From UHGV virus genome UHGV-0335474: a DNA stretch of 36,185 nucleotides; one strand, given 5' to 3'. Made by a program: the position numbers and the translations under genes. This DNA is from a virus. Of the stretch, positions 21,971-35,578 are shown piece after piece (the stretch's first letter is position 1; the number at the start of each line of letters is the position of its first letter). Below the pieces are notes generated by a model, which worked only from the letters and a program-made list of their open reading frames with translations, was not told where the DNA came from and did not search any database.

Positions 21971-22170
21971 GTAAAGAATGTTGTTTCTGCGGCATTAGCG
22001 AATCAGACGCTGATCAAACATACATTTACTCTAAAGAAACAGGTCGGATGCTGTGTAGTGACTGCGTGTTGGACATCATAAGATACAAGCATCTTGGATG
22101 TTCTGCCAGCATTAGCAATATAGGTGAAGTATATGAAGGGAAAGATATAACTGATAGAGCAGAAAGTTGA
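21967..22170 (+). CDS. Small Cys-rich (zinc-ribbon-like) hypothetical protein
   Basis: 67 aa with CCFC...CSDC; ATGA overlap with the arc-like stop. Confidence 0.4.
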   Translation: MSKECCFCGISESDADQTYIYSKETGRMLCSDCVLDIIRYKHLGCSASISNIGEVYEGKDITDRAES

Positions 22171-22233
22171 AGCCCCAACTGCGGTAACAGTCAGGGCTTC
22201 GGTATCGTAAAACCACGCATAGGAATTAACGAC

Positions 22234-23257: not shown

Positions 23258-25945
23258 ATGAGAGACATTACAGCCAATGTGATCGTATCGATGCCTTCGC
23301 AACTCTTCACTATGGCGCGTTCTTTTAAAGCCGTAGCTAATGGCAAAATTTATATCGGTAAAATTGACACTGATCCTGTAAATCCAGAAAACCAGATTCA
23401 GGTCTATGTGGAGAATGAAGACGGTTCTCACGTTCCTGTTTCGCAACCAATAATCATTAACGCTGCTGGATATCCTGTATATAACGGACAGATTGCCAAA
23501 TTCGTTACCGTGCAAGGCCATTCTATGGCTGTTTATGATGCGTATGGTGCGCAGCAGTTCTATTTTCCTAATGTGCTGAAGTATGACCCTGATCAGTCAT
23601 TGAAATATGTAGAAGGGGCATTGCTTGTTACTGACTTAGGTAATGGGACGTTTAAGAATAGTAGAAAAGACGTTGCCATTGGGGATAATCTAACAGGAAC
23701 CAATTTTATTAGAATAAACGGCGGCGTCTATAAATGCACTCCAGTTGCAACTGGAATTGTTACTGAGATCAAACATAGATACATTATCGCAGGCGGGGTT
23801 AAAAGCTACCTGTCTCATATTTCCAGGCATGTCAGTGGTACGCGTAGGCCGCTGAACTGGAAATTAGAATTCAGCATCATAGACGATGAGATTACCGCAG
23901 ATCTTAAAGATCAGTATGGTTACACGACCATGGGATTTCAGGGGATTTACATAGACAGCAATGATGGAATGGTATACATCGGCTGGCAGACGCTAGACCC
24001 CGCATCGGTATGGGTTACGGTGCATGACTGGGTAACAGGAGCATTGGTAACACGTCTTCATTTTCCGAATAACGTTGGTGCACCAGAAGGCATCCACGTT
24101 TACCGAGTGGCAGGACAGCGTTACATCCTGCTGCCGTACAGCCCATCTCGCACTATCAGAATTTACCCTATCGAAGATCCGCGTACGCTGGTTGATAAAA
24201 CGCAGATTACAAACTTCACTGAATCAACACGCCTTGGAGTGCGATATCAGTTTAGTGGCTTTGGTAATACCCTGATATACGAAAATGCGGATATGGGTTG
24301 GCCGAAAATTTTTGATGTTGAGACAGGTGTATCCAATATCTTTAACACACTGGATATTAACAGCCTTATAGAAGGATCTTACAGTCCAATGGGGACTATT
24401 ACGGTTGATGCAAATGTTGGAGGTCGCGGAGCCGGTAAACCAAAACGGCAGGGTGTCGCTCTTGGTTCTCAACGGATATTTGCTGGTATTGGTGCATCTA
24501 CCACGGCGGGATCTGGAAATACTTTCGCAGGGTTGCAGGGTTATATTGAGTACAGCCTTAATGGTTCAGAATTAGGTCAGTACCTGCTGTCACCTGCAGA
24601 TTTCAAAACATACTGGGATAGTTATTCAGGGAAGAGTGTTTACTCCACTGAAAATGAGGGGGTGCAGTCTTGTGATATTTCTGGCTCTGAGGAATTGTAT
24701 CTTCTACAGTCTATTCGCTATGACAATGGGGGCGGATCAAATTATAGGACTTTAAACATCATTCGCGCTAACTGTCCATCTAATGAACCTGGAACAGTAG
24801 ACATGACTCCGCTATCCAATGCCTCATCACAGTTATTTAACCCTCGCGGAAGGGTGATTAACGCTGGCCGTCACCCTGTAAACCCGGCTGATGGTATTGC
24901 GCTATTTACATCGGCACAGGCTATTTGTGACTATTTGCGGAATACAGATGCAGGTAGATATGTGACATATCTTGAACAGGATATGCCACTGTTTGAAGGT
25001 GGGCCATCTGCGCCAGGACAGATGACGCTGCCAGCATTCTGCCTATTGCAGATCGACTTCATCAACGGCGATACCTGGGAAATTACAGTTAATGGAACTA
25101 ACAGGGCTAATAATTATACAGGAAGGATTTCCAAAAACGGCGGGTACAACTCTTTTACTAAGGTGTCCTCCCGCAGCATGTCGATTCTCGGATCCCCTGG
25201 TCTGGTTGATGTATCAATTCGCTCACCTAACTCACTAAATCTTCCAGAATTTGCTGGAGACTGGTCTACTGGTGTAAGTATAGGAGCTGCAGGTGGGGTG
25301 ACAAACTGGCAGCCAGAAGGAACAGGTAACGGAGCATTATGGGAGTCAGGATATGCAAAAAACCGTGTGTTGCAGATATTCATGTCCACAACATCAAAAC
25401 TGTTCTTCCGCTACGCAGACGATGCTATTCGCGCAGGTAACACAGGCTGGGCTGAGGCATGGTCGTCGCTGAACACGACCGTCGATTCAAGTGGTTTCAT
25501 CAAAAAAGCCTCTCCGGTTGTGAAGATTTTCTCAGACGGTAGTAGTGAAACAAATCGCGAATCAGATGGGGTAACCGTCACACGGCTGGCATTGGGTGAA
25601 TATCTGATTGAGGGTTGCGTAGGTCTGAATGCAGATGCTTCATGGGGGGGGATTGATGGTGGATTTGAAATACCGCAGGACCGAAACAAGCAGCCGCTCA
25701 TCTGGCTGGATTATGTTGTTAACCAAGATGGATCTGTGTTGGTGAAAACGTTTCACCGCACTCATGATAACTCGCCCGTTTTTGCACGTAACGACATCCC
25801 TGGTGTTTCGAACGGTGACCCGATCGACATTCCTGCTAATCAATTCGTTTCTGTGCGAGTACAGATGCCTGAGGATTCTGCATGGAATAAGCTTAAGGAA
25901 CAACTAAATAAGGCTGAATTGATAGAAGATGATGTTGTGGAATAG
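23258..25945 (+). CDS. Tailspike protein (P22 gp9-like head-binding domain plus divergent receptor-binding domain)
   Basis: 895 aa. The first ~110 aa match the P22 tailspike N-terminus as recalled (ITANV.VS.P...F....[33 protein letters not shown]...NVLKYDPDQ); the remainder is unrelated to P22/Sf6 spikes. Confidence 0.85.
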
Positions 25946-25984
25946 GTCTGTGATATTGGCATAGGTATAAGTGTCCGCTATTTG

Positions 25985-26006
25985 GGTGGCATTACGCCAC
26001 CTTTTC
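25985..26006 (+). terminator. Rho-independent terminator after tailspike
   Basis: GGTGGC-ATTAC-GCCACC hairpin followed by a TTTT(C) run. Confidence 0.5.
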
Positions 26007-26305
26007 ATCAAGCCAGTCCGCCCATCACTGCATCATTTCTCTGCGCTTATCGTGGCAGATGCCTCACTATCACACGGTGATAGTTCATTACTGGTTTGCA
26101 TAATGGATAGAGAACTGAGGATAAAAGATATCCCAAAATCCCAAAATCTCATCTTTAGGATTTGCAGAAAGGGAGGCGTGAACAAATACCTGCGCATGAA
26201 AACGGAACTAGTCCAGATGTGATGTTTGTGGTGATTACATACATCATTAACGATGCTCGTTATGGTGAGTTTGATGACTACCCGCTGAAGTGAAAATTGT
26301 GTTGT

Positions 26306-26598
26306 GTACCAAATTGCGTACCAAACTAAAATCACAAATCATGAAACCCTTGTTCATGGCGGTTCTCAGGGGTGTTTCGCGTAATCGTGAAAGAGGAAGG
26401 TAGGTTGTTTATCTGTGTCTGTCATTGTCTATCATTGTCCACTGTAGTTAATTAACTGTCTGTTATAACTCGAAAAACAACCATTTTTTCACCTGAGTAT
26501 GTCTACGAACGTCAAATATAGTTGTTTACTGTGCGCTGTTGTCCATGTGATATTGTGTACCAGATGTGTACCAAACCATTATTTCTGAGCGTACCAAA
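26306..26598 (+). repeat. Putative attP arm-type integrase binding sites (five direct GTACCA[A/G]A repeats)
   Basis: Copies at 26306, 26318, 26557, 26568, 26591, flanking ~230 bp that would contain the core; immediately upstream of int. Confidence 0.5.
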
Positions 26599-26606
26599 TA
26601 TTATTT

Positions 26607-27785
26607 ATGGCTATAAGCGACACAAAACTGCGTACTATTTATGGTAAACCATATTCGGGCCCACAAGAAGTGGCTGATGCCGATGGCCTCAGCGTACGAA
26701 TTTCACCGAAGGGGGTCATCCAGTTCCAGTACCGCTATCGCTGGCATGGCAAGCCTAATCGACTTGGGCTTGGTCGATACCCATCCCTGTCTTTGAAGGA
26801 TGCCAGACAGATCACTGCTGACTTGCGAAAGCTCTATTTCTCAGGAACGGATCCACGCACCTATTTTGAAGAGAAGGTGGAGAACTCCATGACGGTCGCC
26901 CAGTGTCTCGACTACTGGTTCGACAATTACGTCTCTACAACTCTCAGAGAAAAGACCCAGGCACTTTACCGATCAACGGTTATGAAGCGCATGCATGACG
27001 CCTTTCCTAATCGTCCGGCATCTTCTATCACGGTTAAGCAATGGGTTGACCTGCTTACCGAAGAAGAAAGAGATAATCCACGCCGAGCAAGGCAGGTGCT
27101 AAGTCAACTAAGATCAGCAATAAGTTGGTGCATGCGGCGTCAGTTGATAGATAGTTGCGCAATTATGAGCATCCAGCCAAGGGACTTCGGCTCACGCGCT
27201 GAGGTAGGGGATCGGGTACTGTCGTATCACGAACTGGCTAAGATTTGGCTTGCTATTGAAAGAAGCCGTGCTTCTACGTCAAATAAGCTGCTTCATCAGA
27301 TGCTTATGCTGTGGGGGGCGAGGCTCTCAGAGCTTAGGCTGGCAACAAAGACAGAATTTGACCTGCTGGACAACGTATGGACCGTACCGAAAGAGCATAG
27401 CAAGATGGGTAATGTTATCCGCCGTCCAATCTTCGAACAAATTAAGCCTTTTCTCGAAAAGGCCATGACAACGTACAATGATGTTCTTTTCCCTGGAGAA
27501 GACATAAACAAACCGATCAGCATCGCTGCAGCCAACCGATTCGTAAATAGAATAAGGGGAGGGATGGATCTAGGTTACTGGCGAACACACGATTTCAGAA
27601 GAACGCTTGTTACACGGCTGTCCGAGATGAATGTCGAGCCTCATGTTACTGAGCGAATGCTCGGTCATGAACTTGGCGGGATAATGTCCGTATACAATAA
27701 ACACGACTGGATAGAGGCTCAGCGCAAAGCGTATGAGCTTCACGCTGATAAATTGTTCTGGCACATCAGGAGCATTTCTGATTAA
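26607..27785 (+). CDS. int: Tyrosine integrase
   Basis: 392 aa; conserved HDFRRT and GHELGGIMSVYNKHDW (H-x-x-R...Y catalytic region). Confidence 0.9.
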   Translation: MAISDTKLRTIYGKPYSGPQEVADADGLSVRISPKGVIQFQYRYRWHGKPNRLGLGRYPSLSLKDARQITADLRKLYFSGTDPRTYFEEKVENSMTVAQCLDYWFDNYVSTTLREKTQALYRSTVMKRMHDAFPNRPASSITVKQWVDLLTEEERDNPRRARQVLSQLRSAISWCMRRQLIDSCAIMSIQPRDFGSRAEVGDRVLSYHELAKIWLAIERSRASTSNKLLHQMLMLWGARLSELRLATKTEFDLLDNVWTVPKEHSKMGNVIRRPIFEQIKPFLEKAMTTYNDVLFPGEDINKPISIAAANRFVNRIRGGMDLGYWRTHDFRRTLVTRLSEMNVEPHVTERMLGHELGGIMSVYNKHDWIEAQRKAYELHADKLFWHIRSISD

Positions 27786-27957
27786 CGCCACCGTTAAGAA
27801 TCCACCCTTCAACAGCTTCACGAAGGTATGATTTGGGGTGGGTTCTGACTGGCTTCGGAAATCCGTGCCGTTTGGTATAGTTCCAGATTGTCTGACGTGA
27901 TGAAACACCGAGCTTGTTCATCACTTCTTTCTCAGGAATCAGGCTGGTATCGGTCAT
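27766..27957 (-). CDS. xis: AlpA/Xis-family excisionase-like DNA-binding protein
   Basis: 63 aa, LIPEKEVMNKLGVSSRQTIWNYTKRHGFPKPVR: AlpA-like HTH. Convergent with and overlapping the int 3' end. Confidence 0.65.
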   Translation of the reverse strand: MTDTSLIPEKEVMNKLGVSSRQTIWNYTKRHGFPKPVRTHPKSYLREAVEGWILNGGVNQKCS

Positions 27958-28036
27958 CTTAACTCTCCAGGCAAAAATAAACCGCCATATAGCGGCTCTA
28001 TCAGATATGAACAGGCCTCATCGAGTGTGAGGCGGG

Positions 28037-28381
28037 TTAGTCCTTGCGTAGCTCGCTGATTCTTCTGTAAGTCTCTGGTGCTTTGTTTCCGTGTATCTTC
28101 ATTTCAGACTTCAACAGAGCAACGAGGGAATCCCATTCGTTGAGGATTCCTTTGAATGCCGGAACGCGCTTTGCAACCTTGTCGAATGAATCTCTGATTT
28201 CTGGAATCTGCTCAACAAGTGCAACGCATCGTCGGAAATCGGCTGCGTCATGTGGAGCGCCGAAGCTATGACCATAGATATTCTTTTTCAGTCCACATGC
28301 GATTGAGGCAAGAGTTGCGCTACTGATGCCTACATCGCCAGTCGATTGCCATTTCAAAACCTTCATAGCCAAATCTGACAT
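28037..28381 (-). CDS. Hypothetical protein
   Basis: Start moved to internal MSDLAMKV (GGAGA SD), because the track start at 28408 lies inside a terminator hairpin. Confidence 0.45.
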   Translation of the reverse strand: MSDLAMKVLKWQSTGDVGISSATLASIACGLKKNIYGHSFGAPHDAADFRRCVALVEQIPEIRDSFDKVAKRVPAFKGILNEWDSLVALLKSEMKIHGNKAPETYRRISELRKD

Positions 28382-28394
28382 TTCTTGTCTCCAA

Positions 28395-28415
28395 TAAAAA
28401 ACCGCCATCAGGCGG
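28395..28415 (-). terminator. Rho-independent terminator (minus strand)
   Basis: Minus strand reads CCGCC-TGAT-GGCGG followed by TTTTTTATT; overlaps the stop of the 55-aa ORF. Confidence 0.6.
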
Positions 28416-28575
28416 TTTGGTGTTCTTTCAGTTCTTCAATTCGAATATTGGTTACGTCTGCATGCGCTATCTGCGCCCATATCATCCAGTGGTTATAGCA
28501 GTCGTTGATGTCCTCTGCTTCGATAACTCTGTTGAATGGTTCTCCATTCCATTCACCTGTGACTCGGAAGTGCAT
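28408..28575 (-). CDS. Small hypothetical protein (55 aa)
   Basis: Read manually: MHFRVTGEWNGEPFNRVIEAEDINDCYNHWMIWAQIAHADVTNIRIEELKEHQTA. GGAGA SD 6 nt upstream. Confidence 0.4.
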   Translation of the reverse strand: MHFRVTGEWNGEPFNRVIEAEDINDCYNHWMIWAQIAHADVTNIRIEELKEHQTA

Positions 28576-28663
28576 TTATCATCTCCATAAAACAAAACCC
28601 GCCGTAGCGAGTTCAGATAAAAGAAATCCCCGCGAGTGCGAGGATAGTTACTTGTTCATATTA

Positions 28664-28963
28664 TTAATCGTCAATGTATTTTGAGCATTGTGGGCAATCA
28701 TCGATCCCACAATACGATTCATATGCATCCTTTATTGCGTCGCGGGCTTCAGTAAGAGTATTGAATAAGTTGCAGCTATTATCTTTTTGATATAGGTAAG
28801 TTCCTAATTTATAAGCAGAAGAAGCATCATTTCCGCTGTCTAAAATTACATCGTTATGGATTCTGCACCTTGCAAGAACTCCTGATCCCATAAGGGTCTG
28901 CATAGCCCATTGCTCTTGATCTTCACACAAATCATGAATGCTCATTTCAACACCTCTCTTCAC
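28664..28963 (-). CDS. Cys-rich hypothetical protein in an AT-rich moron
   Basis: 99 aa; local GC is much lower than the flanks, with an AT-rich upstream region at 28964-29060. Confidence 0.45.
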   Translation of the reverse strand: MKRGVEMSIHDLCEDQEQWAMQTLMGSGVLARCRIHNDVILDSGNDASSAYKLGTYLYQKDNSCNLFNTLTEARDAIKDAYESYCGIDDCPQCSKYIDD

Positions 28964-29059
28964 GTTTCACACACGTTAAGATTAACAGTGTTTTTACATG
29001 CTTTGGAAGATTTATTTTATAAAAACTCTTTTAATACAAATAGATATAATAGTTCACTA

Positions 29060-29782
29060 TTATAGCTCCTTTAATCGAGGCGGTTCTGGTAGAGGCATCC
29101 AGTGGGTTACACCGCCAATTGGCTCATCGTCGTCGTACTCCAATGCGGCTATATAGAACCCGTCACGACGAGAATAAGAAATCCCGGACATTACAATGCC
29201 ATCCGAAACAACAATAATGTCACCCGTTTCTTTCGGCATTCGCTCACTACAGCTTATCCAACCATCCGGAGTTCCCGGAGAGTTGCCATTTACATCGAAG
29301 TTTGGCTCTGCGTCCTGAACCAGGAGGATGTAACCATTCTTGGCTGTATCAAGTTCTAACGCCTCGGTGACGGTGCCGAAATAGCGATTACCTAAATCAG
29401 CATCACAAGTGCTTACATCAATGGAAACTTCCATGCCTTCGATTAATTCTGCCAAGTTGTAAGCTTGGCTTACAGGTTCGGCTTCCAATTCTGCTATGCG
29501 CTTATTTGCTGCTTCCAGCTCATCCAGCAGCGCCAAGACGGTAGCAGGATTGGCTGCGGCGATGAATTCAGCATTGGCCTGCTGTTCCATTTGGAAATCT
29601 TCATCGAAACCGCTTTCAGGATGCGCTCCTTCAATTCTGCAAATGGGAAGATATCCAGCAGCCTTGCGATGAATTAGCGCATCATCACCATCAAATCGGC
29701 CCTCTCCATATTCGAGCGACCACGCACCACACGTTGCTTTCTCTGCCTTAGCACGCAGTGCCTGATAGTCAATTTCGCTCAC
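29060..29782 (-). CDS. Ead/Ea22-like protein with DUF551-like C-terminal domain
   Basis: 240 aa, [21 protein letters not shown]... with a coiled-coil middle and a C-terminus WISCSERMPKE...HWMPLPEPP typical of the family. Confidence 0.6.
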   Translation of the reverse strand: MSEIDYQALRAKAEKATCGAWSLEYGEGRFDGDDALIHRKAAGYLPICRIEGAHPESGFDEDFQMEQQANAEFIAAANPATVLALLDELEAANKRIAELEAEPVSQAYNLAELIEGMEVSIDVSTCDADLGNRYFGTVTEALELDTAKNGYILLVQDAEPNFDVNGNSPGTPDGWISCSERMPKETGDIIVVSDGIVMSGISYSRRDGFYIAALEYDDDEPIGGVTHWMPLPEPPRLKEL

Positions 29783-30267
29783 TGTTTGCCTCCTTTGCGA
29801 AGCTGGCCGGCGAACAAACGTACACTAGACGCTTCACTGCGTAGAAACTTAACGGCATAATCAAAACCACCTCGTTCTGCGTCGTCTGCTGCGTTGTCGA
29901 GGTTATCTGCGTACATCTCCACGCCCTGCGCCCGTACTTCAGCCAGAAAAGCATCGGTGGCTGGGGTTTCAGGTATCTGTCTCCTCATCCGTTCTATTGC
30001 ATGATTGAATCCGAAGTCTTCAGCAAGAGATACGTCATCCATATTGTCATTGTCAGCATCAATATCCCGTAGTTGAGGAATTGCAGACTTTATTCCCGCA
30101 TTCTCCACCGCCAGTGCCGCGCACTTGGCCTCAGCTTCAGCAAATTTACGCACCAGATATTCAGCATTTGTTTCGTTAACCTTTAAATCTCGTGGGATGC
30201 ATTTACCTTTCAGAAAACCATCCATCTCAATTAGTGACATTTGTTTCATTTCTTCCCACTCCGCCAC
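29779..30267 (-). CDS. Hypothetical early-left operon protein
   Basis: 162 aa, acidic; overlapping stop/start with the downstream gene. Confidence 0.5.
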
Positions 30268-30406
30268 ATCGCATTCAGATATTTGTTTTGATTCACTGAT
30301 GGAAAAGAATTTCTCTTAAGCAATTCCTCTCTCGATGGCATTGGCTTTACGCGTTGGCGAATAATCATTTCTGCCGGAAGAATGCCGGGATTGTATGCAA
30401 GTCCTC

Positions 30407-30697
30407 TCATGATTTACTCTCCACGAACTGGTCAATAGCCATGCTAAGTGACACACCTAAAGTTTCGATATGCTGCTGAATATCCTGTAGCGTCTGCGCC
30501 TGAGATAACAGAATTTCACGGTTTAATAACTCTTTAACCAGATGCTCAAACTTGCTGTAATAACCGATACGGCTTAGTGTTTCTTTCCCTGCATTCTCAC
30601 CTTCTTTGATAATTCCTCTTTCGCTAAGAATCAGGTCGTGTTTGGTTCCGGTAATAACGTATTTTCCGAGGTCGATGTTCAGCTTCATTGTTTTCAT
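30407..30697 (-). CDS. Hypothetical protein
   Basis: Start at MKTMKLNID after a GAGGAG SD; the track ORF from 30838 overlaps the upstream gene. Confidence 0.45.
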
Positions 30698-30707
30698 TGT
30701 TAACTCC

Positions 30708-31004
30708 TCAGTCATTACTGATAGCGCCATAGCGTGAGCGGTAATTACGCAGCCGCGGGTCGATATATTCAGGGAAGTGGGTATATGTGGCTTTGCGGAA
30801 TGGTCGGATTGATGTTTCGTTTGTTCGGTCCTTCTCATCTTTTAACGCGAGTTGTATATCGCGTCGGTACATCCGTTCTGCTTTTGTTTCTGGTGGCAGA
30901 TCGATAAACGTGTCGAAAATGTTTTTGATATTTTCCAGCACCTCCGCCTTGGAGCTACCGGAGCAATTGCGCGGGTCATCCGCACCATACAGAGGCGCTG
31001 GCAT
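30708..31004 (-). CDS. Hypothetical protein
   Basis: 98-aa ORF in the operon series. Confidence 0.4.
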   Translation of the reverse strand: MPAPLYGADDPRNCSGSSKAEVLENIKNIFDTFIDLPPETKAERMYRRDIQLALKDEKDRTNETSIRPFRKATYTHFPEYIDPRLRNYRSRYGAISND

Positions 31005-31027
31005 AATGGGAGCCTTATTTTCAGTAA

Positions 31028-31615
31028 TCAGAAAGCAGGGTAATCGTTCTGGCTGTAACCATAATCATCTGCATGATTCTGGCTTACGTTTTTAGAGCGA
31101 TTGTCTTTATCTTTGAGATTGGCAACCATGTTGGCGATAGTTTCTGGTTGCTTGCCTTCTGCCTTTTCTTTAAGGGTTTGACCTGTTTGTGCAATAAACG
31201 GGATGCGTATTTCCATCTGGTAGTTGTCTGCGCCAGTCTTTTTGTTTGTGGTTAATACTTTCTGGAGCACTAACCCGATTTTCTTTCCATGAAATTCAGG
31301 TGCAACAAATTTACTGGCGGAAACCATATGCTGCGTTAATTGTCCAATCCCGGCACACCCCATCATGGCGTGAACGACATTTGCGCCAAATTTGTTTTCC
31401 GTTCCGTCATTTTTCTGAACACAGACGCTAAGATATTGGATTTTACGTCCGTCGTCGGATTCTCCAGAAAACTCAATAAATTTGGCTCCTTTTTCTGATT
31501 GCTTTAGTTCTGCTTCAGTAATGGTAATGATATGGGCGCCAGTTTCGTTAATAAAACCACCTTGCCCTGCGGTCAGTGCTGCTTCTTCGTTATAAGTAAA
31601 AATCACGTTGCTCAT
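31028..31615 (-). CDS. Hypothetical protein, possible ssDNA-binding partner of the Sak4-like ATPase
   Basis: 195 aa, translationally coupled to the upstream ATPase; acidic aromatic C-terminal tail (DDYGYSQNDYPAF) reminiscent of SSB tails. Confidence 0.4.
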   Translation of the reverse strand: MSNVIFTYNEEAALTAGQGGFINETGAHIITITEAELKQSEKGAKFIEFSGESDDGRKIQYLSVCVQKNDGTENKFGANVVHAMMGCAGIGQLTQHMVSASKFVAPEFHGKKIGLVLQKVLTTNKKTGADNYQMEIRIPFIAQTGQTLKEKAEGKQPETIANMVANLKDKDNRSKNVSQNHADDYGYSQNDYPAF

Positions 31616-32292
31616 GCGGCGTTTTCCTTAATTTGATGAACATTATTGATGCCGTAGTAATCACAAACAGTGGCATCGACGAAAGAGAGATCGTTATCAA
31701 TCTCATTGGAATCAAACATTCCCATTGGGGATTTGACAGTGTCTGCACCGTTGTTTTTCGTGGTGAAAAAGAACTGGTCATCGCGGGTAAGAGTGCGAAG
31801 AACTATAGTAAACATGCCTTCGACAGTGATTTTCTCGTCCAGCATTTTGCCGATAGTTTTCATTTTCACGCGCCCCATAGGGGTTTCTTCGGTATGTGCA
31901 AGAAAATAGACTCTCAGGTCATCAGGTGCATCCTGTGCAGCCTTAATCACCTCCCATGCGTGGCGGCCTATCTCAGTAAATTTATCAAACGATTTTTCTT
32001 CTGAGCGGCGCATAAACTCATTGCTCATCACATACTGGAAGTCATCAACAATAACGATTCTTTTTCCGTATTCGTGAGCACGCTTAATTACAGCAACTAT
32101 TACGTCCCATTTGTCAGTGGTAACTACGGTTCCTTTTTTTGCTCTGGCATCCCATGCAAGCCAGTCTTTTGATTTAAATGGTAGCGGCTTGCCTATTGGT
32201 TTTATAAGTATTGCTTCCTCTGGATTGATATTTCTCATGCTGGTTGATTTTCCGGTGCCAGATTCACCGAGTATTAATGTCGCAGTTCCCAT
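31612..32292 (-). CDS. Sak4-like RecA-fold ATPase (recombination / single-strand annealing)
   Basis: 226 aa; N-terminal Walker A GESGTGKST and Walker B-like IVIVDDF. Occupies the position of lambda Red genes. Confidence 0.6.
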   Translation of the reverse strand: MGTATLILGESGTGKSTSMRNINPEEAILIKPIGKPLPFKSKDWLAWDARAKKGTVVTTDKWDVIVAVIKRAHEYGKRIVIVDDFQYVMSNEFMRRSEEKSFDKFTEIGRHAWEVIKAAQDAPDDLRVYFLAHTEETPMGRVKMKTIGKMLDEKITVEGMFTIVLRTLTRDDQFFFTTKNNGADTVKSPMGMFDSNEIDNDLSFVDATVCDYYGINNVHQIKENAA

Positions 32293-32300
32293 AATTTGCC

Positions 32301-32501
32301 TCAGAATGGTAATTCGGATGGGCAGGAAAGAAATTCGCGCTCATTCATGCGCTCTCTTTGCGCCTGCCATAAACAAAGTTGTTTCTTTGATTTATCTCCC
32401 GCTTTACGCCAGTAACGAGCCTCAGCAATGTGATATTCTCTTTTTAATCGACTTAACTCTGGAGTTTTCGCCAGTTCTACCGGAATCATTTTGACCTCCA
32501 T
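32301..32501 (-). CDS. Hypothetical protein
   Basis: 66-aa basic ORF between kil and the ATPase. Confidence 0.4.
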   Translation of the reverse strand: MEVKMIPVELAKTPELSRLKREYHIAEARYWRKAGDKSKKQLCLWQAQRERMNEREFLSCPSELPF

Positions 32502-32599
32502 TTTCTGTAGGCTTCTACGGCTTCACGAAACATCTTTTCATCGCCAATAAAAGTGGCGATAGTGAATTTAGTCTGGATAGCCATAAGTGTTTTATCCAT
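32486..32599 (-). CDS. kil: Kil-like protein (host killing / FtsZ inhibition)
   Basis: MDKTLMAIQTKFTIATFIGDEKMFREAVEAYRKWRSK matches the lambda Kil N-terminus as recalled; overlaps the cIII 3' end as in lambda. Confidence 0.6.
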   Translation of the reverse strand: MDKTLMAIQTKFTIATFIGDEKMFREAVEAYRKWRSK

Positions 32600-32732
32600 T
32601 TTTGGGAACTCCTGGCTGATTAAGTATGTCGATAAGGCGTTTCCATCCATCACGTAATTTACGTGTGATTCGTTCAAGTAAAGATTCGGAAGGGCAGCCA
32701 GCAACAGGCCACCCTGCAATGGCATATTGCAT
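32592..32732 (-). CDS. cIII: CIII (FtsH inhibitor protecting CII)
   Basis: MQYAIAGWPVAGCPSESLLERITRKLRDGWKRLIDILNQPGVPKNG, essentially lambda CIII; AAGGAG SD upstream. Confidence 0.8.
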   Translation of the reverse strand: MQYAIAGWPVAGCPSESLLERITRKLRDGWKRLIDILNQPGVPKNG

Positions 32733-32793
32733 GGTGTGCTCCTTATTTATACATAACGAAAAACGCCTCGAGTGAAGCGTTATTGGTATGCAT

Positions 32794-32818
32794 ATAAAAA
32801 AGCCCTCACACTGGAGGG
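32794..32818 (-). terminator. Rho-independent terminator within the pL operon (tL-like)
   Basis: Minus strand reads CCCTCCAGTGTGAGGG followed by CTTTTTTAT. Confidence 0.6.
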
Positions 32819-32969
32819 CAAAGAAGATTTCCAATAATCAGAACAAGTCGGCTCCTGTTTAGTTACGAGCGACATTGCTCCGTGTATTCACTCGTTGGAA
32901 TGAATACACAGTGCAGTGTTTATTCGTATGCCTGTCTTTTAACCACATCAGGCTCGGTGGTTCCTTCAC

Positions 32970-33016
32970 TTTCCACAGTCAAAGGAAATGGGTAGACTGT
33001 TGTTTCCACAGTCAAA
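32970..33016 (+). repeat. Direct repeats TTTCCACAGTCAAA (x2) overlapping a putative promoter
   Basis: Copies at 32970-32983 and 33003-33016; candidate -35 TTCCAC (32971-76) and -10 TAGACT (32993-98) upstream of the + strand gene at 33030. Confidence 0.45.
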
Positions 33017-33029
33017 AGAAGGAAATGCT

Positions 33030-33212
33030 ATGTCTAGCAACAATGTAGATGTAACTTTGTACCCAGTTCATGCCGCCTATCAGGTCGCACTTGAGCTTGC
33101 AAAGGCTGGGGCATTCAACAACTCAAGCGATCGCGGAACTGCTTTCATTAATGCCTTTGACAAGTTGAAAGAAAGGTTTGAGCAAGTTCAGGAAGAATCT
33201 AACAACAAGTAA
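33030..33212 (+). CDS. Small hypothetical protein transcribed against the pL operon
   Basis: 60 aa after an AAGGA SD; the track ORF from 32988 would translate through the second repeat. Confidence 0.4.
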   Translation: MSSNNVDVTLYPVHAAYQVALELAKAGAFNNSSDRGTAFINAFDKLKERFEQVQEESNNK

Positions 33213-33498
33213 GCTTTGCAAAGCCAGCGATAATGTTGCTGGCTAACATCTCAAACCGTTTTTTCTGAATATCTCTTGATTCTTCATCAATTGGGGGTTC
33301 ACTATTGCTTAGTGCCGTTACATATACGCGAATTGCCGCTGACCGGACATCATCAGGAAGATGTTCAAGTGTACTGGCTCTTGTTTGAATAAGTTCTGCA
33401 ATAGTTGCTTTCTTAATATCTTCAGTTTTTTCATCAATTACTGATATAAAATTTTTTACTGATGCTTCCAAGGAGCTTTCTAATTTACTTAAATCCAT
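33199..33498 (-). CDS. Hypothetical acidic protein immediately downstream of N
   Basis: Start at MDLSKLE, 2 nt after the N stop; the track ORF from 33567 overlaps N. Confidence 0.45.
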   Translation of the reverse strand: MDLSKLESSLEASVKNFISVIDEKTEDIKKATIAELIQTRASTLEHLPDDVRSAAIRVYVTALSNSEPPIDEESRDIQKKRFEMLASNIIAGFAKLTCC

Positions 33499-33500
33499 AA

Positions 33501-33884
33501 TTACCTCGCTGTCAGTTGTTTTGATTTCCGATAGCCTGCCGCGTAAAGAGCTACATTTGGAAGACATACACCAGTTTCTGGTTGCTTATGTCCAAACTCA
33601 TTCGCGTACACAACGGCCGCTCGCTCCAGATTGCGTCTGTATTCTTTCTGTTGCCAGATCACGTCCTGTGCCATGAACTTAATTGGCTTAGCGTCTTCTA
33701 TGCGCTCAGGCGTTTCGTGAGTACCTTTAGCCTGAATCTGCGCTCTGCTTAGAGTAGGGCGGTGTAATACTTCTGAACTTATTGCTTCTTCGCGGGCCAG
33801 TACGCCGTTAGCTAATGCCTTTGCCTTTAAATGCTCACGACGACGAGAACGTGAATTGCCTTTGAACTGAGTTCTGCGTGTCAT
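33501..33884 (-). CDS. N: Antitermination protein N (P22 gene 24-like)
   Basis: 127 aa with an N-terminal Arg-rich motif (GNSRSRRREHLKAKA); the C-terminus ...VALYAAGYRKSKQLTAR matches the P22 gp24 end as recalled. First gene downstream of pL. Confidence 0.75.
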   Translation of the reverse strand: MTRRTQFKGNSRSRRREHLKAKALANGVLAREEAISSEVLHRPTLSRAQIQAKGTHETPERIEDAKPIKFMAQDVIWQQKEYRRNLERAAVVYANEFGHKQPETGVCLPNVALYAAGYRKSKQLTAR

Positions 33885-34387: not shown

Positions 34388-35409
34388 TTATAGTTTAACC
34401 ACCATCCTATCAATGGCTTCTAAGCAAGATTGTTTATATGGGGCATTAACTTTTACCCTTCTGTTCATAACTCGTACACTACCTGTTGGTAGGATCGAAA
34501 ATGGACATCCTTTAGCAAAGGCAACAACACCAGTTGTCTGAAAATCTTTAATATTTACCACTCCCTCTTCAATATTTTCGAAGTCGAAAATTTCAGGGTT
34601 ACTTAGTAATAGTTGCTGAATATCATTATCGATTGATTTTAGAACTGCGGCATAGGCTGATGCAGGCCCCATATACTGTGTAAGACGGTTTTTTGCGATC
34701 ATATGAACTTTGGGTAGTGGTCTGCTCACCGCGGTAAGTTTGTTTGCAAATGCGTAGGATGCATAAATATCAGATGGCAACTTTAATCCATAAATCAAAG
34801 AGAAAGCATTTTGAATGGCGCGACGAGAGGAATCATCAGCCATAACTGGCAAGATGAGCTTTTCTACAGCAGCTAATGCTATTTGAGTATAAATTGAAAA
34901 ACTAGGATTACAGTCAATAAATAAAACATCGTACTCATCATTTAGATCTTTAATAAGATCATTAATCCAATCAATGATGCTTACCCATGCATTTGTTCCT
35001 GGAATCTGCTGATTAGCAAGAGTGTTGATGGCGTTTGCTTGAAGCTCAAGAAGCGGGTCACCGCATACCAACGATATATTGGCTGGAATATGTTCGTTGA
35101 ATTTTTTTGGGTGTGTCAAATAATCGTGGGCATCAACAATGGGTTTTTGATAAGGCGTCGGGAGGCGCATTTGGAAGTAGCCACCCAAAGTACATCTATT
35201 ATTTATATCATGCCTAGTCAATAAGTTTATGCTTCCATTACCTATTAACCCCCCAAGAAAAAGCTCTGACAAGTTTGCCTGTGGGCACACATCAATAACC
35301 AACACGCGCTCAAGCGGGTGAATTTCTGCATATCTGCAAATAGCTTGAAATGACAGGCTTGTTTTCCCTGTTCCTCCCTTGTTGTTCCATATAGCATATT
35401 TCTTCATCA
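34388..35409 (-). CDS. ParA/MinD-superfamily ATPase with C-terminal extension, in the rexAB slot
   Basis: Deviant Walker A KGGTGKT, A' motif VLVIDVCPQAN, Walker B YDVLFIDCNPS. Start at MMKK (ATG 35409 or 35406) after an AGGAG SD; the track ORF from 35482 is an upstream extension. Confidence 0.7.
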
Positions 35410-35578
35410 TAAACTCCTGGTTAACGATGTCATTGCTGGTTAATGTTTTACCATTGGTAAAGTGGTGCACCAAGAGTGACACGGTAAACCAAATAGATCA
35501 AGACTTATGGTAAACGATTTACCAGTGGTGACATCGATAACCGAAAAAGACTGCATTTCTGCAGCCTGTTTCACACAA

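Follow-up and report, generated by a model that had tools for sequence, protein, structure and literature searches.

The window is the whole stretch of DNA that we analysed (36,185 bp), and the region discussed here (25946-26606) lies in it between a tailspike gene and an integrase gene. The tailspike gene (23258-25945, plus strand, 895 aa) closes the run of late genes ahead of the attachment region. Its product matches Pfam Head_binding at 1.2e-66 and Phage_tail_C_2 at 2.1e-59, and the corresponding tailspike region in the prophage of E. coli MS 21-1 is 99.1% identical. On the other side, int (26607-27785, plus strand) encodes a tyrosine integrase with an Arm-DNA-bind_3 domain (8.2e-18, residues 4-85) and a Phage_integrase domain (1.1e-16, residues 204-366). 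This integrase is 100% identical to the EC.P3 integrase and 99.5% identical to that of Stx2 phage 1717, and the paper on phage Sf101 equated these integrases with 2851 Int at 99% (PMC4159516). Convergent with int is a gene for a probable excisionase of 63 aa (27766-27957, minus strand), an AlpA/HTH_17-like protein that matches PHROG 66 ('excisionase and transcriptional regulator') at 1.9e-8. Its match to Pfam AlpA (0.0032) is below the cut-off, and the homologues in HK544 and mEp234 are annotated as AlpA family or as excisionase-like. The role we give to this protein is a putative one, read from its sequence.

The part of the region next to the tailspike gene consists of remnants. A terminator-like hairpin (25984-26005, plus strand; GGGTGGC-ATTAC-GCCACCT, then TTTC) folds with -12.9 kcal/mol in ViennaRNA for 25971-26015, and our terminator scan, with its stricter T-run rule, did not accept it. 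On the minus strand, 25985-26056 is what remains of an integrase gene of the IntS/HK620 type, namely about 20 codons of its 3' end, with an internal stop, that read ...HDKRREMMQ*WADWLDEKVA*. The relic has a 90-97% DNA match to the int 3' ends of HK620, IME10, CUS-3, HF4s and Kapi1. In two contigs with the same tailspike (L097 and L098) the similarity to the window ends at 26052, and one of them (L097) runs into the host genes ybhB and bioA. Judged from these matches, the relic is a mosaic recombination scar left by an exchange of integration modules, outside the active site. It is followed by a humD (umuD-like) pseudogene (26043-26293, plus strand), which retains residues 46-129 (of 129), is broken by one frameshift and by one internal stop, and was found in two frames by tblastn with HK140 HumD (E = 1e-17). 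The gene is intact in HK140, and the same stretch in E. coli GPEC1292 is a frameshifted HumD pseudogene in RefSeq. An 8-bp tandem duplication, ATCCCAAA twice at 26130-26145, adjoins the humD frameshift. We also looked at a minus-strand ORF of 100 aa (26033-26335) and at small plus-strand ORFs in the region; none matched a Pfam family, and we rejected them as artefacts of the humD pseudogene and the int relic.

Several relatives with an intact attP share the sequence of the window only from 26161-26230 rightwards. We estimate from the sequence that the functional attP would occupy about 320 bp, 26290-26606 or close to it. An earlier note on this DNA, made from the sequence alone, had called the whole of 25946-26606 an attP-like region. 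That description fits from about 26290 to 26606, and leftward of this it has to give way to the integrase relic and the humD pseudogene.

The same note had listed five direct GTACCA(A/G)A repeats, two near 26306-26325 and three at 26557-26598, and a pattern search finds exactly these. Two copies of GTACCAAA lie in the left (P) arm at 26306-26313 and 26318-26325, with a spacing of 12 bp, and we propose them as the arm-type Int sites P1 and P2. The right (P') arm has a triplet, GTACCAGA at 26557-26564 and GTACCAAA at 26568-26575 and 26591-26598, proposed as P'1-P'3; its spacings are 11 and 23 bp, and the last repeat ends 8 nt before the int ATG. The repeat unit can be extended to 11 nt, TG(T/C)GTACCA(A/G)A. 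When both strands of the 36,185-bp window are searched, GTACCARA has 5 matches, all on the plus strand and within 293 bp. Shuffles of the window had a mean of 1.49 matches, with 5 being reached in 1 of 100. As a control that is independent of choosing the motif beforehand, we counted 8-mers in 25946-26606, where GTACCAAA is the commonest with four copies; a non-trivial 8-mer occurred at least 4 times in 1 of 5000 first-order Markov simulations of this region. The CATTGTC-type repeats reported between the arms are also real, and are TGTCTGTCAT, TGTCTATCAT and TGTCTGTTAT at 26416, 26426 and 26457 (span 26416-26466).

Between the arms, upstream of int, lies the 13-bp core CGTAATCGTGAAA (26380-26392, plus strand). 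It is identical to the annotated and published core, which has been reported as the same 13 bp for phages 2851 and Sf101 (PMC4159516). The GenBank records of mEp234 and HK544 carry 'attP; prophage attachment site (type 2851)' at this position, and in the record of Stx2 phage 1717 the same 13 bp are annotated as a duplication caused by insertion. Similarity searches with the region gave matches in mEp234, HK544, HK140, Sf101, E212 and Stx2 phage 1717. The site itself is thus already known, an ordinary attP of the catalogued type 2851. Among 5426 E. coli genomes, 909 have matches to the module, mostly split at the core.

To place the core, we aligned the attP of the window with both junctions of the MS 21-1 prophage and with the empty attB of E. 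coli K-12. The 13-bp core is the only block that is identical in all four sequences. The left arm runs on into the tail-side junction of MS 21-1, beyond which come the sbcB start and dacD. The right arm runs on into the int-side junction, and the body of sbcB lies in front of that junction. This is the classical POP' x BOB' pattern. In MS 21-1, the closest relative (~99% identical on both sides), the two arms are 42.8 kb apart, one joined to dacD and the 5' end of sbcB and the other to the sbcB body. The target therefore lies at codons 13-17, in the 5' coding end of the host gene for exonuclease I (sbcB), and not in a tRNA gene. The earlier note had proposed to locate the core by comparison with host tRNA and tmRNA 3' ends. 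With the core in sbcB at 26380-26392, such a comparison could not have found it; the window contains no tRNA or tmRNA, and an Rfam scan found no RNA family in the att region. Taking the core, the junctions and the module together, we think it very probable that a P22-like temperate coliphage equipped with the '2851-type' integration module has its complete attP here, with its DNA most likely in phage form.

We considered core-type inverted repeats as well. TTTCGCG-TAAT-CGTGAAA looks like an imperfect palindrome, and its conservation is confounded by the coding constraint on sbcB, so we set it aside. A separate observation concerns a lineage whose Int is 61% identical, in which one locus has an intact attP (L069) and two are in prophage form (L074 and L085). 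The host side shares TTTCGTAATC, and to the right of GTAATC both the sequence (TTCGGCAAGG) and the host gene differ. The comparison suggests a second target for the lineage, and it also suggests that strand exchange would take place within or beside GTAATC.

The 2851-type phages have attP sequences that are about 98% identical among themselves. At this level of identity, conservation of the repeats says nothing, so the argument that they are arm sites rests on more distant lineages. GTAC recurs without exception at -50/-39/-16 (±1) from the int start in 31 related loci, whose Int identity is 56-100%; in the two argW-type loci among them the triplet is at -52/-41/-17 instead. Every relative whose attP is intact, down to 60% Int identity, also has the left GTAC pair, at -301/-289 (±1). 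These GTAC positions are fixed even though the identity of the arms falls to about one half in distant relatives. The Salmonella phage SEN34, for example, has an Int that is 60% identical, an attP that is ~50% identical and the same core, and its GTAC repeats lie 302/290/50/39/15 bp upstream of the int start, as compared with 301/289/50/39/16 in the window. IMG/VR provided 27 loci with 61-100% Int identity, all with the -50/-39/-16 triplet; the -301/-289 pair is found there only where attP is intact, and the prophage-form loci have sbcB coding sequence in its place. When eleven lineages are aligned, GTAC is invariant in each right-arm repeat and most other columns vary. The layout also extends to relatives with 56% Int identity that target argW, a tRNA-Arg gene, which have the same 2+3 arrangement with spacings of 12 on the left and 11 and 24 on the right; in VT2phi_272, a phage of this argW type, the equivalent left pair has the 12-bp spacing. 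The motif itself varies by lineage, being GTACAnAA in SEN34 and the argW group and GTACCARA here. It would be hard to find another explanation for a motif that recurs on both arms in one orientation, at constant distances from the core and with two target specificities, and we conclude from this pattern that the five repeats behave like arm-type integrase sites that Int is predicted to bind.

Another protein might bind the repeats instead, for example the excisionase-like protein or a regulator of int, in which case they would be operators, or they might have arisen by chance. We consider this very improbable. Chance is excluded by the shuffles and the Markov simulations described above. A pure transcriptional operator would look much like the right-arm triplet, which does overlap the probable int promoter, and the lineage shift between GTACCAAA and GTACAnAA does not identify the binding protein. 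However, such operators would also have to occur on both arms, in one orientation and at a constant distance from the core, whichever of the two targets a lineage uses. The left pair lies 290-300 bp from int, and integration parts the two, an arrangement that would be senseless for an int operator. The adjacent Int has a dedicated arm-binding domain. Excisionase sites are normally on one arm only in lambda-type sites.

The remaining alternatives concern the form in which the DNA was sequenced. The earlier note had read the window as a non-integrated, circularly permuted genome, and this agrees with what we find: both arms are phage DNA and are joined at the core, while MS 21-1 carries them split. 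The flanking genes are also as it described, with a tailspike-type gene on one side and, on the other, int followed by the excisionase-like gene, Sak4, SSB, N and the repressor (the last five on the minus strand). By blastn against the 42.8-kb MS 21-1 prophage, window positions 12-26409 (nin region to tail-side junction) and 26380-33566 (sbcB-side junction to N region) are colinear with its two ends at 97-99.7%. The window ends in phage genes on both sides, NinG, NinI and Q on the left and the repressor on the right, and the segment missing between its ends is the cro/replication region. By this colinearity the window corresponds to a circularly permuted MS 21-1-like prophage, and since its arms are also contiguous, the DNA was most likely sequenced in a virion, replicative or excised form.

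If the site were instead the attL or attR of an integrated prophage, there would be host DNA on one side of 26380-26392, and the earlier note had named host sequence within 26340-26550 as the sign of such a junction. Host-like sequence is indeed present there, since the core is identical to sbcB and the next ~45 bp resemble a divergent sbcB start (AAGGTAGGTTGTT as compared with AAGGTAGATTGTT in K-12). Yet it does not mark a junction because the same stretch is found in every free phage copy of attP (mEp234, HK544, HK140 and Sf101). The four-way alignment already refutes the attL/attR reading, as both flanks match phage arms and not host DNA; with the tailspike gene on one side, int on the other and no host gene between, we give it next to no probability. 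The only live rival is that the window comes from a bacterial chromosome and spans the junction of two related tandem prophages at sbcB. Tandem integration at shared attB sites has been described (PMC8112680), and window positions 25999-26700 are contiguous in the chromosomes of O157:H7 MB9-1, Show KS 470-1 and STEC799. In MB9-1 (L005, chromosome 2014822-2015523) the attP-like site has the tail/nleG7 end of one prophage on one side and the int of a second prophage on the other. The window, which runs from the nin region to the repressor and lacks the replication region, cannot show closure of a single genome. We nevertheless judge this arrangement unlikely. A tandem junction is rare, at 3 of the 909 E. 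coli genomes that carry the module, and both sides of the window are nearest to and colinear with one prophage, MS 21-1. No host genes are present at either end of the window, and phage records and viral contigs of 36-40 kb routinely show the same contiguous arrangement.

For the attP that we favour, the proposed mechanism is as follows. The N-terminal arm-binding domain of Int would bind the five GTACCARA arm sites, two of them ~55 bp to the left of the core and three ~165 bp to the right, and its catalytic domain would bind around the 13-bp core. The folded complex would then recombine with the identical 13 bp at sbcB codons 13-17, and the prophage would afterwards sit between dacD and sbcB. 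Within this scheme, sequence comparison establishes the identity of the core, how the lysogen junctions are built, which domains Int has, and that the repeat positions are conserved. IHF was considered too; a search with its consensus, WATCAANNNNTTR, found one 1-mismatch match in the region, at 26569-26581, which is no more than expected, and the counts across the window are at or below chance.

The direction of int transcription, away from the core, requires an int promoter within the right arm. A standard promoter and terminator scan of 25850-26750 found no int promoter and no terminator, and gave one weak plus-strand hit inside the humD pseudogene. A lenient scan, which is the only source of the promoter candidate, picked out TGtGATATT (26546-26554, plus strand) as a candidate extended -10 that abuts the first P' repeat. 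A TGnNATATT-like sequence is kept at this place across lineages with 60-100% Int identity, in which the rest of the arm has diverged. The three right-arm sites overlie this probable promoter and the int leader, so Int probably represses its own gene. In KplE1 IntS and P4 Int, arm sites overlap the int promoter and Int is autorepressed (PMC2951348).

The right arm has a further property, which is that it rebuilds the start of sbcB. On the minus strand, 26381-26425 forms a phage-borne replacement 5' end that is in frame with sbcB across the core. It reads ATG (26425-26423) ACA GAC ACA GAT AAA CAA CCT ACC TTC CTC, and then TTT CAC GAT TAC in the core. The right arm thus supplies MTDTDKQPTFLF, to which the core adds HDY; the peptide of right arm plus core is MTDTDKQPTFLFHDY, as compared with MMNDGKQQSTFLFHDY in K-12 SbcB. 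In the MS 21-1 lysogen, sbcB is annotated as intact (474 aa) with its start in the P' arm. Ten Int lineages that we examined, with 70-100% identity, have a start-capable codon (ATG, TTG or GTG) at the same codon position, usually after a stop and GGA, and followed by ...Q(P/L)TFLF. SEN34, with 60% Int identity, has GTT at the start position, GTG two codons upstream and the peptide ...QNTFLF. The lysogen junctions from Int lineages at 70-94% are in frame to ...ETFG..DRPAQF in all eight cases (8/8), and the MS 21-1 junction is also in frame. When reverse-complemented, the CATTGTC repeats read GACAATG, and the replacement start codon is part of them. A possible leftward promoter, TGGACA-19-TATATT (26545-26515), is a candidate from the lenient scan.

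The replacement start that the P' arm provides for sbcB is conserved, so lysogens keep a full-length reading frame. We find it quite possible, if a little short of probable, that the right arm acts as a conserved 'gene-repair cassette', made up of an RBS-like GGA, a start codon and 11 codons, and that it places sbcB under phage-supplied and possibly Int-modulated control. If this is true, the candidate leftward promoter, int and the proposed Int-binding repeats would share a divergent control region of 170 bp. It would also mean that lysogeny does not knock out exonuclease I, contrary to the assumption of the Stx-phage literature, in which sbcB is described in terms of 'disruption' or 'occupancy' (PMC8309913). 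The rebuilt frame bears on how sbcB 'occupancy' is read in the typing of pathogenic E. coli.

In comparison with known systems, the site is closest to the type 2851 attP of Stx2c phage 2851, Stx2 phage 1717, Sf101, mEp234, HK544 and HK140. They have the same core, arms that are 93-98% identical and Int at 99-100%, and in each case a rightward int follows attP immediately and faces a convergent AlpA-like gene. The difference is in what surrounds the module: the backbone of the window is that of a CUS-3/Sf101-like P22-type podovirus, for which the best coverage by a phage record is 51%, and left of 26230 the arm varies by carrier, with humD intact in HK140 and a pseudogene in the window. SEN34 and the argW-targeting Stx2a phages (the VT2phi_272 / PA2 group) have the 2+3 GTAC geometry within 1-2 bp. 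SEN34 shares the sbcB core with the window, whereas the argW group recombines with a tRNA-Arg gene; both differ from the window in having an Int that is 56-60% identical and the consensus GTACAnAA in place of GTACCARA.

The general layout is that of lambda attP, in which a heterobivalent Int has P1 and P2 on one arm and P'1-P'3 on the other (PMC2951348 and established knowledge). As in lambda, five arm-type repeats are split 2 + 3 round a short core and are distinct from the core sequence, the adjacent tyrosine integrase has a separate arm-binding domain, and a small excisionase(-like) gene is beside int. On these likenesses, the window site would work like a lambda-type heterobivalent integrase site with 2 + 3 arms. 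Unlike in lambda, Int belongs to the Arm-DNA-bind_3 (P4-like) group and int is transcribed away from attP, with its promoter candidate inside the P' arm. The repeats in the window are also all direct, no IHF site was recognised, and the target is inside a protein-coding gene. The site resembles those of KplE1/HK620 IntS and satellite phage P4 Int in having the probable int promoter and leader in the P' arm, overlapped by arm-type repeats, and int and excisionase genes that are transcribed separately. The targets there are tRNA genes and autoregulation is experimental, while in the window it is a prediction. HK620 Int and the window Int are ~22% identical.

The comparison gives a firm annotation, namely that the phage integrates at sbcB by means of a catalogued integrase/attP module and that the sequence is in phage order. 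The site map, with the core, the 2 + 3 arm repeats and the likely int promoter, defines a minimal attP of ~320 bp (26290-26606). This integrase family is widespread in enterobacteria and mobilises Stx2c phages and O-antigen-modifying phages. What this adds to a known site is modest: a geometry that is conserved across the integrase family, and an arm that restores sbcB.

Elsewhere in the window, an ORF of 364 aa (34388-35482, minus strand) lies between the N-like gene and the repressor and has a ParA-like ATPase match (PHROG 164, 2.5e-39). The MS 21-1 prophage lacks an equivalent of this part of the window, and the ORF could be an accessory or exclusion gene. Two Rfam matches were above the gathering score. 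One is the lambda cIII thermoregulator element (32687-32745, minus strand, 88.5 bits), and the other is the sar antisense RNA (22165-22232, minus strand, 85.7 bits), which adjoins the anti-repressor gene.
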